A stretch of DNA of 45,936 nt. It comes from an uncultured bacterium (lineage in GTDB: Bacteria; Abyssobacteria; SURF-5). The stretch covers positions 1 to 45,936 of the forward strand of contig CAZEBC010000011.1 of NCBI GenBank assembly GCA_964510165.1, read 5' to 3'. The position numbers were made by a program, and so were the translations under genes. Below are positions 17,654 to 25,693 of the stretch, in pieces. Positions within the stretch are counted from its first letter, which is position 1; the number at the start of each line of letters is the position of its first letter. The notes beneath the pieces are model-generated. The model did not search any database, was not told the DNA's origin, and was given only the letters and a program-made list of their open reading frames with translations.

Positions 17654-19799
17654 ATGAATCTCAGCCAGCTCATAGGGTTTATCGGTCATTTCATGGGGGC
17701 GGTCCTGCAACTGATCCTCATCATGATGATGGCCCGGCGCAAGGACAAGCGGCACAGCGAGACGCTGTTTTTCGTGCTGGTGGTTGTCGTCTTCATATGG
17801 CATTCCGGAAATTTCGTCATCACGTTTTCAAGATTGCTGACCGGTGAGCGGATCGTCATCGTCGGCCTGATATGGGATACGGCTGCGGCATTGAGCATCG
17901 GACTTGTGCCCGCATTGCTCATACATACGCTTCTCGCTTTCCTCGAGGAGGCGCCGCAGAACATCTATTCGAGGCGCAGGCATCTGGTGCTCTTGGCGGC
18001 ATACGCGCCTCTTCCGTTCTTCTGGCAGGCGCCGATCAGGCTCGTTCAGCATCCCGAACTCCCGCGCGCCGAGAACCTGCTGCTGGTCATTCAGATGTTT
18101 CAATACTGGACCATGGCGGCATTGGCCGTGGCGACGCACATGTGCCACACGCTTTCGAGTCTCTCACAAGACGACGTGCAGCGCCGGTTTTATATGTCGC
18201 TTGTGAGGATGTTTGCGGTCATCTTCGGGCTGATGGTGTTTACGCACCTGTTCTACGCCAAATATATTCCCGGCCTGGGGACCTACTTTCTCGCGGCCTG
18301 CTCGCTTGCGCCGATGTTTCCCACGATAGTGTTCTCATACTTCATTCTGCGTTATAACTACATGGAATACGTGCTCAAGAGGAGCATCTATTACGCGCTG
18401 CTTGCGACATTCGTGTTGACCGTTTACATTCTCGGCATTCGCCGCGTCGGTGATTTCCTGGAGCGCACACTCGATATTGACTTCAGGATAATCGAGGCGA
18501 TATTGGTCATAGGATTGTTTCTCCTTATTGATCCGTTGCGTGAGTGGTTCACGCGGGTGTTCAACGCCCTGTTCTTCCGGGAACAGTCATATTACCGACG
18601 CGTGTTCTCGGAACTCAGCCATCACATGAGTTCCATGCAGGGGATCGAGGTCGGCAGGATGCTGCGCTATGTCGCAGGAAGCGTTCAGGCTGCCATGCAA
18701 CTGAGCAACTGCAGGATCGTCCTTTTCCGGGAGGAAGACGGTCAGCGCACGATTGACGAGGCCTCAGCGGAGATTCCACTCGCAAACCTGGAGAATATCG
18801 CGCGGCACTTTCAGACGATACACGCTCACAGCATCTCGCTGTGGCAGGCGCCCGATCCGGCCATTGTTCGCGAGATGAAGGCGATCGACGCCACGCTGGT
18901 GCTTCCCATCTATCGGGATGGCGGCTTGACCGGCATCATGTCGCTCGGCGCGAGCACGCAGTATCGCGAGCTTTATGAGGACGAGATCGAGCTGCTCTCG
19001 ATATTGCTCAATCACCTCATAACCGCCATTGACAACACGCGTCTGTTGCAGGACAAAATCGAGATGGAGCGCCGCATGGCCGCCAATGAGAAATGGATGA
19101 CCATCGGGAGGCTGTCGGGCCAAATTGCGCACGAGGTGAAGAACCCGCTGAGTTCCATCAAGGCGATAACCCATGTCATGCGAGAGGAATTATCGCCTGA
19201 AACCCAGTTCTACAAGGACCTTTCCATCGTCGAGGACGAGATAGACAAGCTCTCCGGCGTGGTGAGCCAGTTGTTGCAGGTGTCGCGGCCGGCGTCGCGC
19301 GAAGAGCATTCCGCCAACCTTCGCGACATCATCGAGAACGTCGCCAGCGTGCTTCGCGCGAAAGCCTTGCAGGACGACATTTCGATCGAGTGTCAATATG
19401 AGCACGGCCTGCCGACAGTCAAGGCCGACCCTATCGCGCTGCGCGAGATTGTGTTCAACCTGATGCATAATGGCATGCAGTCGATGAGTTCGGGCGGGAG
19501 GCTCTCGGTTCAAGTGATGCGCTCAGCCGAAGACGACAGGCGCTCCGTGACCATCGTGGTGCACGACACCGGCCCGGGCATCTCGGAGGAAGACATGCCT
19601 AGGATTTTCGAGCCGTTCTACACCACAAAGGAAGGCGGCAGCGGGCTTGGACTCTGGATCGTCCGCGAAAAGCTGACGGACCTCGGCGGCACGATTTCCG
19701 TCGAAAGCAATCAAGGGACCACCGTGCGAGTGATGATCCCCCTTGAAGGCAAACCCGCCATGATGCGGCCAAATTCATCACAACCACAGGAGACAGGGA

Positions 19800-19807
<8 letters not shown>
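17654..19807 (+). CDS. Membrane-bound sensor histidine kinase (multi-TM N-terminus, GAF-like domain, HisKA, HATPase)
   Basis: AHEVKNPL H-box, N-box NLMHN, DTGPGI, FEPFYTTK and GSGLGL. Confidence 0.93.
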
Positions 19808-21200
<1,393 letters not shown>

Positions 21201-21228
21201 GACCTGAACCTGATGAGAGGGGAACCCT

Positions 21229-21666
21229 ATGGTTGAGAAGTCAGTGATCGGCAAGACTACCGCGGTTCACAAGATGGAGGTGGAGAAGGGGCATATACGC
21301 CGATTCGCCCAGGCAATCGGCGACGATAATCCACTCTATCATGACGAGGAATACGCGAGGAAGAGCCGATACGGCGGCATTGTTGCACCTCCCACTTTTC
21401 CGACAGTCTTCGGTTTCGAGGGCCAACGCGTGCTTGAAGGCCTCGAGATCAATCGCGCGCGCCTGCTGCACGGCGAGCAGGAGTACGAGTATTTCAGGCC
21501 GATTATGGCAGGTGACACGATCAGTTTCAGCACGAAGGTCATAGACGTGGATGTGAAGGAAGGCAAGAGCGGCGTCATGGATATCATCAGGACGGAGATG
21601 ACCGGCTACAACCAGCGAGCCGAAAAGGTGTTCGCCGCGCGCTCGACCGTTGTCATACGCAGATAG
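21229..21666 (+). CDS. MaoC-like dehydratase, N-terminal-type (FAS1-like hotdog) subunit
   Basis: IRRFA-x-AIGD-x-NP, APPTF and LLHGEQ motifs. Confidence 0.88.
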   Translation: MVEKSVIGKTTAVHKMEVEKGHIRRFAQAIGDDNPLYHDEEYARKSRYGGIVAPPTFPTVFGFEGQRVLEGLEINRARLLHGEQEYEYFRPIMAGDTISFSTKVIDVDVKEGKSGVMDIIRTEMTGYNQRAEKVFAARSTVVIRR

Positions 21667-21677
21667 GAGTGGATACC

Positions 21678-22118
21678 ATGTCCAAACAAACACTCTATTT
21701 CGATGACATCAACGTAGGCGACGAGATCCCAAGCCTGACGAAACCGCCAATCACCGAGGTGCAGCTCGTCAAGTATGCGGGCGCCTCGGGGGACTTCAAT
21801 CCCATCCACACGGTTCATCATTACGCCGAGAAAGCCGGCCTTGGCGGCGTTATCGCTCATGGGATGCTGAGCATGGGATTCGTGGGCGAGCACATCACCA
21901 AATGGATAGGGGAGACGGGCGACCTGAAGCGTCTTAAGGTTCGCTTTGCCGCCATCACGAGGCCGGGCGATGTGATCACTCTCAAGGGAAAGGTTATCCG
22001 AAAAGAGAAGTCCGACGGCGACAACCTGGTCTTCTGCGAGGTATGGGCCGAAAAGCAGGACGGCGTGAAGACCGTCACGGGCGAGGCGACTGTCAGGCTC
22101 TTGTCGCGCCAATCTTGA
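21678..22118 (+). CDS. MaoC-family (R)-specific enoyl-CoA hydratase/dehydratase, catalytic subunit
   Basis: YAGASGDFNPIH and IAHGM hydratase-2 motif; AGGAG SD. Confidence 0.9.
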   Translation: MSKQTLYFDDINVGDEIPSLTKPPITEVQLVKYAGASGDFNPIHTVHHYAEKAGLGGVIAHGMLSMGFVGEHITKWIGETGDLKRLKVRFAAITRPGDVITLKGKVIRKEKSDGDNLVFCEVWAEKQDGVKTVTGEATVRLLSRQS

Positions 22119-22152
22119 GAGAGATCCACACAAACAATCAGCGAGAAACCTC

Positions 22153-22530
22153 ATGAAAAGAACGAAAGGGCAAGTGGAAGAGGACATCTGCAAAGCGCTC
22201 ATCAAGTTTGAAAAAGACTACATGGGCCGGGGACCGCTCGAAGCAAAGGCCTATGTCATTGATGACATGATTCTTGTGCGTCTCAGAAAAGTACTTACCC
22301 AGGCTGAACTTAACCTTGCCCAGTCGGGCGAAAACTCTAAGGGTCGCGAACTCATAAAACAGATGCGGGTCGAGTTGCTGGAAAGGGGCCGCCCTCTCCT
22401 TGAGGCTGCCATCCAGGCCATCACCCGCAGAAACGTGGTCAGCCTCCATACGGATATAAGCACGGTCACGGGCGAAAGGATATTCATCTTCACCCTTGAC
22501 GGCGAACCCGAATTCACCGGTTCCGAATAG
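22153..22530 (+). CDS. DUF2294 / MpsC-family protein
   Basis: TKGQ-x-E, GRGP, LT-x-AE, GR-x-LIK-x-MR and HTDIS-x2-TGE-x4-FTL signature of DUF2294. Confidence 0.85.
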   Translation: MKRTKGQVEEDICKALIKFEKDYMGRGPLEAKAYVIDDMILVRLRKVLTQAELNLAQSGENSKGRELIKQMRVELLERGRPLLEAAIQAITRRNVVSLHTDISTVTGERIFIFTLDGEPEFTGSE

Positions 22531-22548
22531 GTTCTCAATCATACGGAC

Positions 22549-22577
22549 TTGACGACAGCGCCATAATATGTCATAGT
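22549..22577 (+). promoter_or_regulatory. sigma70 promoter driving the structured leader and the biotin carboxylase
   Basis: TTGACG-N17-CATAGT with extended -10 TG. Confidence 0.6.
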
Positions 22578-22592
22578 ACTTAAACTAATGAG

Positions 22593-22691
22593 TGCAGGCC
22601 CGGAGCTGAGGGCGAGGTCATTCGCCATCAGCCTGAGTCTGGAAGTGCGGATTCAAGTCTGGCCGGGCTCCCCGAAGGGGGTGCGGCTGCG
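22593..22691 (+). ncRNA. Candidate cis-regulatory structured RNA (riboswitch-like aptamer; no family I recognise)
   Basis: Five nested or adjacent stems folded by hand, immediately followed by a terminator that has an overlapping antiterminator. Confidence 0.6.
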
Positions 22692-22699
22692 GAAATGAA

Positions 22700-22740
22700 A
22701 GCCGAAGAGTCAATATGTGATTCTTCGGCTGTTTTCTTTA
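22700..22740 (+). terminator. Intrinsic terminator/attenuator in the biotin carboxylase leader
   Basis: 13-bp stem AGCCGAAGAGTCA/TGATTCTTCGGCT followed by GTTTTCTTT. Confidence 0.8.
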
Positions 22741-22777
22741 TGGCCATGTGGGGAACGACGGTTCCCGGAGGTCATTG

Positions 22778-24418
22778 ATGCATGGGACTTGCTTGAGCAA
22801 AGTGCTTGTCGCTAACAGGGGTGAGATAGCCATACGCATAATACGCGCCTGTCAGGAATTGGGAATAGAGACGGTGGCGATTTATTCAGACGACGACCGC
22901 AAATCGTTCTATTACCGGATCGCTGACGAAGCCATTCACATCGAGGGTTCCGGCGCTCGCGATACCTACCTGAATATTGACAAAGTAGTACATGTCGCGA
23001 AGAAGACCGGATGCGACGGGGTGCATCCAGGTTACGGTTTCCTGGCTGAAAACCCCGATTTCGTGAGTGCGTGCGAAGCGGCCGACCTCCATTTCATTGG
23101 ACCGTCCAGCGCCTGTATGAAGAAGGTGGGCGATAAGGCCGGGCTGAAACGGATAATGGAAGCCGGCGGCGTCCCGGTCCTGCCTTCGGTCGAAAACAGC
23201 GCTACTCCCGACGAAATGAAGACCCTGGTCAAGCGCATCGGATTCCCCGTGATCGTCAAGCCCTCCTTTGGCGGAGGCGGAAAGGGCATGAGAATAGCCC
23301 ACTCCGAGAACGAGCTTGAGGATGCCATTCGATACGCCAGAACAATTGGAATCTCGGCTTTCGGGAACGCGGCCTTCTATGTTGAGAAGTTGTTGGAACG
23401 GCCCCGGCACATCGAGGTGCAGATACTTGTGGACCGTAATGGGAGCATCGCCGCCTTCGGAGAGCGGGAATGTTCGATCCAGAGAAATCATCAGAAGCTG
23501 ATCGAGGAATCCCCCTCATCCGCAATTACTCAGGAATTGAGGGAAGAGGCCCAAGACCTTGCTCGAAAGGCCGCCGCCATTGTCGGCTATGAGAACGCGG
23601 GTACCATCGAGTTCCTGTATCAGGACGGACGCTTCTACTTCCTCGAAATCAACGCCCGAATCCAGGTCGAGCACTCCATCACGGAGCTTGTCACCGGAAT
23701 TGACCTCATCAAGGAGCAAATCAGCCTGATGTGCGGGAATCCGCTGCCCTTTGCCGGCAAGCAGCTATCTCCCCGGGGATGGGCGATCCAGTGCAGGGTC
23801 AACGCTGAGGACCCCTACAACAACTTCACCCCCTGCCCCGGCAAGATTATTGGCTATCGCTCTCCCGGCGGGCTGGGAGTCAGGGTGGACACCGGAGTAT
23901 TCATGGGTTACTCGATACCCGCGCAATACGACTCACTGGTGTCCAAATTGTCGGTCTGGGGCCGAGACCGACACGAAGCATTGTCCAGAATGAGGAGGGT
24001 CCTCAATGAATACGTCATCCTGGGCGTAAAGACCACTCTGCCCCTCTACAGGGCGATATTCAGGGAGAAGGACTTCGTCTCGGGAAACTATGACACCCGT
24101 TACATCGAAAAACATCTCGACGCGCTCCTCAAATCCATGGAGGAAATACAAAGGAGAGAGAAAACTCACGATGAAATGCTGGCGGCCGTCTTCAATGGGT
24201 TGACCCAGGAGCGCCGTCCTGGCAACCGCCACGCCGAGCCTTCAAGACCTTCTCGAGACCAGGAGTTGGCCGTCGTGATAGGCGCCGCCATCGCCCTGGC
24301 GACTGACTCCGTGGCAGCAACGCCCGAAAGCAACGGCCGCCCAAGTCAATGGCGTACGGCCGGGCGACTTGCCCAGATGACCAGTCGGCTCGGAAGCGGC
24401 CTGCGATACTTGACATGA
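22778..24418 (+). CDS. Biotin carboxylase subunit (AccC / two-subunit pyruvate carboxylase alpha-like) with C-terminal extension
   Basis: ANRGEIA, HPGYGFLAEN, GGGGKGM, ERECSIQR, RIQVEH, NAEDP and YDS motifs; GGAGG SD before ATG 22778; no biotinyl (AMKM) domain. Confidence 0.92.
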   Translation: MHGTCLSKVLVANRGEIAIRIIRACQELGIETVAIYSDDDRKSFYYRIADEAIHIEGSGARDTYLNIDKVVHVAKKTGCDGVHPGYGFLAENPDFVSACEAADLHFIGPSSACMKKVGDKAGLKRIMEAGGVPVLPSVENSATPDEMKTLVKRIGFPVIVKPSFGGGGKGMRIAHSENELEDAIRYARTIGISAFGNAAFYVEKLLERPRHIEVQILVDRNGSIAAFGERECSIQRNHQKLIEESPSSAITQELREEAQDLARKAAAIVGYENAGTIEFLYQDGRFYFLEINARIQVEHSITELVTGIDLIKEQISLMCGNPLPFAGKQLSPRGWAIQCRVNAEDPYNNFTPCPGKIIGYRSPGGLGVRVDTGVFMGYSIPAQYDSLVSKLSVWGRDRHEALSRMRRVLNEYVILGVKTTLPLYRAIFREKDFVSGNYDTRYIEKHLDALLKSMEEIQRREKTHDEMLAAVFNGLTQERRPGNRHAEPSRPSRDQELAVVIGAAIALATDSVAATPESNGRPSQWRTAGRLAQMTSRLGSGLRYLT

Positions 24419-24427
24419 AAAGCTCGA

Positions 24428-25693
24428 TCATGCGCGCCGTTCATCGGCCAGCGCCACCGAGATGATCCGCACGATCCACATCGCGAAAATCACCATCACT
24501 GTGGATTGATACGCAATGAGCGGATAGTCACCGTCGGCCCGCGGGAACATCTCTACCATGTGCCCCATCAGTTGGGTGAAGGCCGCTCCGCCGAGAAATG
24601 TGAAGAAGTTGATGATTCCCACGGCTATCCCGAGAATTTCATAGGAATACGATTCGCGCACCATCGCGTGTGTCAGTACCCCGCCGCCACCCGTAACCCC
24701 AGCGATGAACAGCAGCCCGGAAACTGCCGATTCGGGTATGCTGAGCGGGATGAACGCAGGAAAGAACCATACGGCCGTCGCGATAATCGAACTGCCAACG
24801 AGAATCCGCTTGCGCGACTTGAAAAGGCGGTCAGACAAGAATCCCCAAAACGGAGCCCCGCACACGCCCCCGAGCGAGTACCAGAGCAGCGCGTTGCCCA
24901 CTTGCACCAGCGAGAAGTTGTAGCTCCTGCTCAGAAACGGGCCTCCCCACAGGCTCTGGAACCCCTGCACGGAACTTCCCGCAATCATGAAGATTACGAG
25001 CATTATGTAGCTGCGGTTACGCATGAGCGCCCATATCGTAAGCGCTATCTCGCGGAACTTCTCGCCAGGCGTTTCCTTTACCACAGCTTCAACCACTGTC
25101 TTCGGGTCTCCCTCGTCGGGCGCGTTTTGCACGCGGTAACGCACAAGCGTAATTAATCCGACCGCGGCCCCGGCCACTACTACATAGGTGGCGCGCCACC
25201 CCATCAGTTTCACCGAAAGCGCCAGTGGTGTGGTTGCCAGCATATTGCCGATCATACCCAGCGACATCAGCACTCCGAGCACCGTGCCGAACTCGTCTTT
25301 CTCGAACCAGTTGCTCAGTATCTTGATAAGTGAAAGATATATGAAAGATATACCAGCCCCTATGAGCACGCGGCCGAGCAGCGCGGTCCCGAAGCCCGGC
25401 GCCGCCGCGAACACCACCGAACCCGCCGCCGAAAAAACAAGGGAAAGAATGATTGTGCGCCGGGGACCGAGCTGATCGGCGAATACGCCCGAAGGCAGTT
25501 GCATGAAGGCGTAACAATACAAGAGTATTCCGCCCAGGAGACCGAGCTGAGCCGGTTCCAGGCCGAACTCGCCCGCAAGAAGGTCCCCAATGACGGCCAG
25601 TGTTACGCGATGGAAACTGACAAAGCAGTACACCAGCGCCAGTGAGGAGAACAGCGCCAGCCTGCGGCTCGTAAATTTTGAAAAAACGTGCAT
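24428..25693 (-). CDS. MFS transporter
   Basis: About 12 hydrophobic segments; motif A-like SGVFADQLGPRR and GFLSDRLFKSRK. Confidence 0.9.
   Translation of the reverse strand: MHVFSKFTSRRLALFSSLALVYCFVSFHRVTLAVIGDLLAGEFGLEPAQLGLLGGILLYCYAFMQLPSGVFADQLGPRRTIILSLVFSAAGSVVFAAAPGFGTALLGRVLIGAGISFIYLSLIKILSNWFEKDEFGTVLGVLMSLGMIGNMLATTPLALSVKLMGWRATYVVVAGAAVGLITLVRYRVQNAPDEGDPKTVVEAVVKETPGEKFREIALTIWALMRNRSYIMLVIFMIAGSSVQGFQSLWGGPFLSRSYNFSLVQVGNALLWYSLGGVCGAPFWGFLSDRLFKSRKRILVGSSIIATAVWFFPAFIPLSIPESAVSGLLFIAGVTGGGGVLTHAMVRESYSYEILGIAVGIINFFTFLGGAAFTQLMGHMVEMFPRADGDYPLIAYQSTVMVIFAMWIVRIISVALADERRA

Follow-up and report, generated by a model that had tools for sequence, protein, structure and literature searches.

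In the hut operon of Bacillus subtilis, the gene for a small regulator, HutP, lies upstream of a terminator-bearing leader whose RNA site consists of repeated triplets, and in the pyr operon (PyrR) as well as at the ribonucleic antiterminator (RAT) sites of BglG/LicT the hairpin to which the protein binds is in competition with an antiterminator or with the terminator itself. How non-photosynthetic bacteria sense CO2 or bicarbonate is largely an open question, and we know of no function that has been assigned to the protein family MpsC, formerly DUF2294, since it was named. Its founding member is encoded in the mpsABC operon of Staphylococcus aureus, where, according to excerpts of the original report, mpsC is dispensable for the function of MpsAB, its deletion is without growth phenotype and transcription of mpsA drops at 5% CO2 (Fan et al. 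2019, PMC6689103). Here, we describe a gene of the same Pfam family (PF10057) located at positions 22153–22530 on the plus strand of a stretch of 45,936 nucleotides from an uncultured bacterium (GTDB lineage Bacteria; Abyssobacteria; SURF-5; assembly GCA_964510165.1, contig CAZEBC010000011.1), which is referred to as the window. Both loci are linked to inorganic-carbon supply; however, mpsC of S. aureus is situated 3′ of mpsAB behind a weak terminator, whereas the window gene lies 5′ of a putative RNA attenuator and a carboxylase gene in a genome without DabA/MpsB. The picture that we draw from gene order and RNA conservation is that DUF2294 and an RNA motif, termed R1, quite probably constitute one functional system for inorganic-carbon genes. 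Evenly poised, in our opinion, is the more specific proposal that DUF2294 is the protein partner of an attenuator which controls inorganic-carbon-dependent genes in a HutP- or PyrR-like fashion, a proposal in which we infer RNA binding, direction of control and signal.

The initial annotation had described a clear DUF2294 protein, encoded 18 bp before the promoter of a structured leader and containing many Lys/Arg residues, and this description was confirmed. In the Pfam scan, the 125-residue product of 22153–22530 matches PF10057 with E = 2.7e-35 (121.2 bits, cut-off 23) over profile positions 1–110 of 111 and thus represents a full-length domain, and a six-frame search of the genome, which is 97.05% complete, returned this one match only (120.7 bits), making the gene the sole copy. 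NCBIfam holds no model for the protein. It is rich in basic residues and yet roughly neutral, because 20 Lys+Arg equal 20 Asp+Glu among the 125 residues counted from the translation. The TAG stop codon at 22528–22530 is followed, after a gap of 18 nt, by a sigma-70-like promoter on the plus strand (22549–22577), in which TTGACG (22549–22554) and CATAGT, the latter preceded by TG and extending to 22577, are separated by 17 nt. The 171 nt from position 22575 fold with −84.2 kcal/mol (z = −6.5), a value that none of 200 shuffles equaled. Within this leader, the minimum free energy fold contains a first hairpin at 22605–22632 (plus strand; stem, G-rich internal loop, stem), and a covariance model identifies R1 at 22653–22735 (plus strand), in which a P1/P2 hairpin containing an internal loop is joined by a short A-rich linker to an intrinsic terminator. 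The latter is formed by a 13-bp stem (22700–22730) that runs into a stretch of T residues up to about 22740. R1 scores 68.1 bits here (E ~1e-15) and has no second match in the genome; a search of the section 21000–25000 of the window against Rfam 15 gave nothing beyond noise at E ≤ 10.

Behind the leader, a stand-alone biotin carboxylase is encoded on the plus strand at 22748–24418 (Pfam Biotin_carb_N/CPSase_L_D2/Biotin_carb_C; best NCBIfam match PRK08654, E = 4.2e-201). From the sequence around its 5′ end, the true start is probably ATG 22778 and not the listed GTG 22748: a GGAGG is present at 22767–22771, 6 nt before this ATG, and homology begins a few residues after it. Genes for carboxyl-carrier and carboxyltransferase partners of the enzyme were not found in the window.

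The combination of gene and leader is not peculiar to this contig. When one genome was scanned for each species, 316 DUF2294 loci were confirmed, the best 80 of which were kept, and R1 was searched for in 84 loci, comprising 82 with DUF2294 and two carboxylase loci without it. In 63 of the 82 DUF2294 loci, R1 is present on the plus strand and starts 113–444 nt (median about 160) past the DUF2294 stop codon; the two carboxylase loci lack it. The linkage extends over Hydrogenedentota, Planctomycetota, Desulfobacterota, Nitrospirota, Armatimonadota, Fibrobacterota and other phyla. At its 5′ side, the motif has a stem of 4–8 bp, which leads over a step of two pairs to a conserved internal loop and a hairpin of 4–6 bp with variable loop; toward the 3′ side follow the short A-rich linker and a terminator with arms that often read GCCGAAG and CUUCGGC. 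The covariance model was built from an alignment of 17 copies, for which RNAalifold proposed 21 pairs; compensatory changes are seen at 15 of these. When 62 matches (E ≤ 2e-5) were evaluated, 93.4% of the cells were paired compared to 77.7% in shuffles, with 0 of 500 shuffles reaching the observed value; 19 of the 21 pairs have changed on both sides, and pairing falls to 30–56% when the 3′ partner is slid by 1–3 columns. No gathering-score match to Rfam 15 was obtained for 14 related loci and none at E ≤ 1 for eight loci. R1 is an RNA motif without a family in Rfam 15. A candidate for autoregulation, an R1 copy that would precede DUF2294 by about 110 nt in L098, L110 and L115, was rejected, as these matches score 17–22 bits and lie at the end of the preceding gene.

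Co-occurrence of protein family and motif, which had been proposed as a check on the initial annotation, came out clearly positive, not only at the level of loci but also at that of genomes. Among 11 species genomes of the own phylum, strong R1 matches are confined to two, and these are the two that contain PF10057, namely G000, which carries the window, and G005; three further genomes exhibit weak R1 matches of 25–29 bits and are all devoid of PF10057. In the class of G045 (61 genomes), R1 occurs in 10 genomes and PF10057 in the same 10 plus one genome with a 56-residue match, the protein gene and R1 being adjacent in nine of the 10. In the phylum of G106 (61 genomes), R1 was found in four genomes and PF10057 in seven, with all four having both. 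Taken over the three samples, 16 of 16 genomes with strong R1 carry PF10057. The search was also run in the opposite direction: a scan of metagenome contigs for an RNA pattern, derived from R1 copies that adjoin DUF2294, returned 34 matches, six of which are true R1 motifs (61–82 bits), and DUF2294 lies directly upstream in all six, the remaining 28 being chance matches in GC-rich coding DNA without R1 score. In one of these six contigs (L185, 387–833), the DUF2294 gene that precedes a good R1 match is split over two frames, either by a frameshift or by a sequencing error.

Four genomes (G044, G069, G071 and G081) contain two or more R1 copies each and a single DUF2294 gene. Copies without adjacent DUF2294 precede purE, the gene pair CarB-CarA, the series PEPCK-like (phosphoenolpyruvate carboxykinase-like)-PurE-PFOR or the series PurE-SulP-PFOR, and in G069 the DUF2294 gene adjoins none of the R1 copies.

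The own phylum also informs about the evolutionary behavior of the pair. In G005, the gene order is kinase, sigma-54 regulator, DUF2294 (70% identical), a longer leader with a terminator that shows compensatory changes, and the orthologous biotin carboxylase. Carboxylase orthologues with 65–66% identity in G004 and G009 are accompanied neither by DUF2294 nor by an R1 match. The four genomes with carboxylase orthologues thus comprise two with DUF2294 and R1 and two with neither, a distribution suggesting that protein gene and RNA are gained and lost as a unit. BLAST searches with the leader DNA across the phylum gave chance matches only, and it was the covariance model that recognized R1. A related arrangement is present in G003, a genome of 77% completeness (L150, G003:C168, 100–340): the end of a hot-dog gene is followed, without intervening DUF2294, by a leader and a paralogous biotin carboxylase gene. 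The terminator of that leader is like that in the window and the hairpin core is unconserved (28.6 bits); it may be a decayed or a different version of the cassette.

Further information comes from the genes located behind the cassette. Neighboring open reading frames (ORFs) were called with a simple picker into which the DUF2294 gene was forced, clustered, and annotated by Pfam, NCBIfam and the ESM Atlas. A plus-strand ORF of at least 100 amino acids is present among positions +1 to +3 in 66 of 80 loci, and the first such ORF belongs to a listed CO2/bicarbonate family in 43 of the 66. Most frequent is a PEPCK-like protein of about 600 amino acids that Pfam does not recognize and that owes its name to the ESM Atlas alone (score 0.99; 13 loci), followed by SAICAR synthetase PurC (seven loci), GTP-type PEPCK and AIR carboxylase PurE (six loci each), pyruvate carboxylase/biotin carboxylase and an HMGL-like carboxyltransferase domain (two loci each), and, in one locus each, DUF4914, carbamoyl-phosphate synthase, SbtA with a PII protein behind it, biotin ligase with pyruvate carboxylase behind it, a POR-like protein, gamma-carbonic anhydrase and a carboxyltransferase. 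PEP carboxylase, SulP-STAS, PFOR and AccA appear at the second or third position. At least one gene labeled CO2/bicarbonate occurs among the co-directional positions +1 to +3 in 47 of 80 loci and among positions −1 to −3 in three of 80, the upstream tally being based on annotation of 136 of 137 unlabeled upstream proteins, with one left out for size. This asymmetry between upstream and downstream is independent of the choice of the family list. The genes behind the cassette match reactions that make cells dependent on CO2. In physiological terms, this gene content suggests that the input is the supply of inorganic carbon. The PEPCK-like family, the commonest one behind the cassette (L111:8611–10443 (+) and 14 further loci), deserves mention in its own right: it lacks Pfam and NCBIfam matches, contains a P-loop-like motif and is set by the ESM Atlas beside clusters automatically named phosphoenolpyruvate carboxykinase, DUF4914 and PEPCK_ATP.

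The protein itself is well conserved. Among the candidates scored, 1609 homologues of the window protein were found at E ≤ 1e-5; the best 120 are 59–100% identical and stem from Nitrospiraceae, Hydrogenedentes, Armatimonadota, Sedimentisphaerales and others, with homologues of 60–86% identity in many phyla and an identity between phyla of 60–70%. The source names of the closest homologues assign the organism to Candidatus Abyssubacteria. An alignment of 36 sequences has 34 invariant columns, all of which are present in the window protein; they include a GRGP loop, Arg/Lys residues on one face of the long helix 3 and an SLHTDIST segment near strand 3. In some genomes (G134:C57; G163; L083), an additional MpsC paralogue is encoded that is divergent in sequence (about 53 bits), and in L083 (10135–10672) R1 directly precedes this paralogue and is not found beside the first DUF2294 gene.

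Considering that the protein gene–RNA pair is constant, that its targets vary, that the RNA is never found without the protein and that several RNA copies can accompany one protein, we favor a regulator with a cis-acting site. The conserved cassette would comprise the DUF2294 gene, a promoter and a leader of structured hairpins with terminator, placed before genes for the consumption or import of CO2 or bicarbonate. DUF2294 would recognize the conserved P1/P2 hairpin beside the terminator and possibly also the similar upstream hairpin, and its binding would decide whether RNA polymerase stops at 22730–22740 or reads through into the carboxylase gene. The signal would be inorganic-carbon supply or a metabolite reporting this supply, and in genomes with several copies DUF2294 would act in trans on several leaders. 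Direct binding of DUF2294 to R1 RNA, taken by itself, we rate just short of evenly balanced. The regulatory role, either in CO2/HCO3− sensing or in RNA binding, that the initial annotation had put forward is thus strengthened with regard to linkage and carbon-gene context, and its binding and signal components stay at the level of a proposal.

A more far-reaching version, in which a protein of a new fold class binds bicarbonate or CO2, for instance via the invariant Arg/Lys/His/Asp cluster or by lysine carbamylation, grips the hairpin and thereby sets the expression of carboxylation and bicarbonate-uptake genes, appears unlikely to us at present. If it were true, it would be the first CO2-responsive transcription-attenuation system, and one distributed over more than six bacterial phyla. 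In literature outside subscription journals, nothing relevant was found on DUF2294 function or on a bicarbonate/CO2 riboswitch. DUF2294 and R1 are a new pair of protein family and RNA motif that most probably works like known attenuation systems, with a putative signal not previously described for these systems. Should the protein–RNA pair be confirmed, an orphan family would gain a function, the catalogue would grow by one RNA motif and one attenuation protein, and the CO2 response of many uncultured lineages would become readable from sequence.

Likeness to the known systems is considerable without being complete. As in the hut operon, the gene of the proposed regulator lies directly upstream of, and co-oriented with, a terminator-bearing leader of metabolic genes (in 63 of 82 loci), and DUF2294 is proposed to interact with this RNA in response to a metabolite, as HutP does. 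However, DUF2294 has no sequence relation to HutP, no HutP is among the structural matches listed, the DUF2294 cassette has a promoter between regulator gene and leader, the R1 site is a hairpin with internal loop instead of repeated triplets, and one and the same cassette is placed before a variety of enzyme genes in different phyla. With PyrR and BglG/LicT, the system shares a short conserved hairpin beside an intrinsic terminator and the provision that several sites are served by one protein. It differs from them in that the R1 hairpin and the terminator can coexist, no conserved competing pairing having been found, and in that the protein families are unrelated to DUF2294.

Several points weigh against the proposed protein partner of an attenuator. 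With the Pfam threshold set to E ≤ 0.01, MpsC was the only family assigned to the window protein, HutP, PyrR, TRAP and any RNA-binding family being absent from the result, and structure searches provided no decisive RNA-binding or ligand-binding fold relative. No adjacent R1 is present in 19 of 82 DUF2294 loci, two of which are truncated right behind the gene and others of which have different neighbors, and in the phylum of G106 three of seven DUF2294-positive genomes are without an R1 match. The genome-wide RNA search scored 72–150 candidates per genome and overlooked a known copy in G041, and the co-occurrence counts overstate independence because the genomes within the samples are kin. The covariation alignment of R1 was fitted to the model, which favors structure. 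Finally, the list of CO2/bicarbonate families was compiled after inspection of the data and includes members by association, such as PurC, BirA, PFOR and the PEPCK-like proteins named by the ESM Atlas.

The structural comparisons deserve a closer look. AlphaFold2 with the 36-sequence alignment predicts a compact alpha+beta domain (pLDDT 89.7, pTM 0.84) with the order helix 5–22, strands 30–36 and 39–45, helices 50–57 and 62–91, and strands 95–102 and 109–115. A sequence search against solved structures retrieved a PilC fragment only (E = 0.015), the corresponding profile search nothing below E = 0.24, and Foldseek no match in the PDB at E ≤ 0.001. The best VIA-align hits (Z = 6.5 in pdb_via_wide and 7.2 in pdb_via) are both FtsK domains, and other matches with Z of 4–6 comprise collagenase, phage tail-terminator/neck proteins, Bet3, RbfA and histidine-kinase ATP-binding domains. 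Because no structural match rises above noise, DUF2294 was given no fold family, and the relative with an RNA-binding surface or bicarbonate pocket that the initial annotation had suggested looking for did not emerge. Two folds are nevertheless worth describing. Type II KH domains have a GXXG loop between two central helices. The predicted order of elements in DUF2294 agrees with this domain type, and RbfA, Era KH and mitochondrial RBFA are matched with Z 4.3–5.9, values within the noise range of the tool, these alignments having a root-mean-square deviation of 3.0–4.5 Å over 81–90 residues. The candidate GXXG position (residues 58–63) is variable, and the only invariant residues there are G64-R65 at the start of helix 3. 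Matches to the small-molecule-binding fold of V4R/Bet3/H-NOX (Bet3/V4R together, Z 4.3–6.0; Bet3/TRAPP, 4.5–6.0; V4R 2oso, 4.4; PoxR sensor, 4.3; YslB, 4.4) are likewise in the noise range and have Foldseek probabilities of 0.75–0.85 at a TM of about 0.4.

The alternative that survives best states that the leader is an autonomous riboswitch and that DUF2294 is a co-localized inorganic-carbon protein, such as an enzyme, a carrier or a chaperone, which does not touch the RNA. We consider this doubtful. Like many riboswitches, R1 is a conserved, covarying RNA that ends in a terminator, but it is not found in Rfam 15 and is tied to one protein family in every genome examined, all 16 of the RNA-positive genomes having DUF2294. 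Similarity to tandem transcriptional riboswitches goes further, as covarying 5′ leaders with intrinsic terminator precede metabolically coherent genes in both cases and many DUF2294-R1 loci have two elements in series, the upstream one often with its own terminator; against an autonomous switch stands the constancy of the DUF2294-RNA pair in the face of varying downstream genes. Extra R1 copies at loci without adjacent DUF2294 and the absence of a recognized RNA-binding fold in the protein would both fit a riboswitch. Location speaks the other way: because the DUF2294 gene is upstream of the leader promoter, it is not under the control of the RNA. Moreover, P1/P2 is a small hairpin, and a search for alternative pairing between it and the terminator was negative. 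In a crude test, restricted to pairings inside R1, the 3′ strand of P1 was matched with the 5′ arm of the terminator and the 5′ strand of P1 with the 3′ arm; neither combination paired better than shuffles (z −0.24 and −0.51). Because no conserved antiterminator pairing was detected inside R1, a purely RNA-based switch is not evident, and this would agree somewhat better with a trans-acting factor than with a self-contained riboswitch.

The second element in series was noted in many related loci (L105, L073, L089, L096, L082, L118, L145, L154 and others) between the leader promoter and R1. This “domain 1” is composed of a stem, a G-rich internal loop and a hairpin, often has its own terminator and is situated about 90–110 nt before R1. 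By eye, the first hairpin of the window leader (22605–22632) resembles it.

Promoter-like sites between the DUF2294 stop codon and R1 reach a score of at least 10 in 15 of 63 loci compared to 2.2% of shuffles and usually lie 100–150 nt 5′ of R1. On account of this enrichment, the leader probably has its own promoter. The same sites could be the target of DUF2294 if it were a DNA-binding transcription factor that acts on the promoter 18 nt past its own stop codon, the RNA then being a separate layer. A regulator gene beside its own target promoter is a common arrangement, and the conserved basic residues could equally touch DNA. Nevertheless, such a function is improbable: neither a helix-turn-helix nor any other DNA-binding Pfam domain was returned for the window protein, it is an RNA structure with compensatory changes and not a DNA operator that is conserved across phyla, the extra copies retain the RNA motif, and two stacked regulatory layers are less parsimonious than one.

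Equally hard to defend is the idea that DUF2294 is a protein–protein signaling adaptor, for example in a partner-switching or CsrA-type network, with an indirect effect on the genes. It draws on the genes for a GAF domain-containing histidine kinase (17654–19807) and a sigma-54 response regulator (19800–21200), which were assigned by Pfam on the plus strand of the window. Both Abyssubacteria genomes with the cassette, G000 and G005, have this pair upstream of DUF2294, in G005 as judged by ORF sizes and order (L004, 2514–6328). However, upstream neighbors in the 80 loci are heterogeneous and contain no recurring kinase or phosphatase, whereas the RNA is the only constant neighbor. Because of this heterogeneity in other phyla, the association with the kinase and the sigma-54 regulator is probably lineage-specific, and a functional link was rejected, the pair being kept only in G000 and G005.

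In the initial annotation, neither DabA nor DabB had been seen in the window, and a role as transporter subunit had been judged a poorer fit than a regulatory one. For DabA (MpsB, PF10070), the absence holds and extends to the whole assembly: not a single match was obtained anywhere in the 97.05% complete genome, and the control genomes of B. subtilis and Haloferax volcanii do match. For MpsA/DabB, no NuoL-like subunit is present among the Pfam-scanned ORFs of the window, and no search aimed at DabB/MpsA was made. The family owes its name to the mpsABC operon of S. aureus, and PF10057 and PF10070 coexist in B. subtilis. Nevertheless, it is next to impossible that DUF2294 is the remnant of an inorganic-carbon pump of the MpsAB/DabAB type, and a role as subunit of such a transporter is excluded in this organism because the genome has no DabA. 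DabA is also missing from the annotated neighbors of 80 related DUF2294 loci, and MpsAB of S. aureus, by the same excerpts, functions without mpsC (PMC6689103).

Upstream of DUF2294, two MaoC/HadAB-like hot-dog hydratases are encoded on the plus strand at 21229–21666 and 21669–22118 (Pfam FAS1_DH_region, MaoC_dehydratas; also HadA/HadB-like in NCBIfam, below cut-off). The second gene ends 34 nt 5′ of the DUF2294 gene, and a consensus scan detected no promoter-like site between the hydratase genes and DUF2294; judging by this spacing, they probably share one transcript. Elsewhere, in L131 (8464–9912), the gene that follows DUF2294 codes for a diadenylate cyclase of the DAC type, equipped with the sensor domains DACND/DACNH, and the R1 copy of this locus lies 1.7 kb farther downstream, before a cytochrome c assembly gene. 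The window carboxylase has a C-terminal tail of about 100 amino acids beyond Biotin_carb_C (24100–24418) that contains no biotinyl domain; a stretch 47% identical to this tail occurs within a separate 151-residue ORF in the same genome (G000:C18:2798–2974) and also in G002. Directly after the carboxylase gene, a convergent gene for a transporter of the major facilitator superfamily (Pfam) occupies positions 24428–25693.

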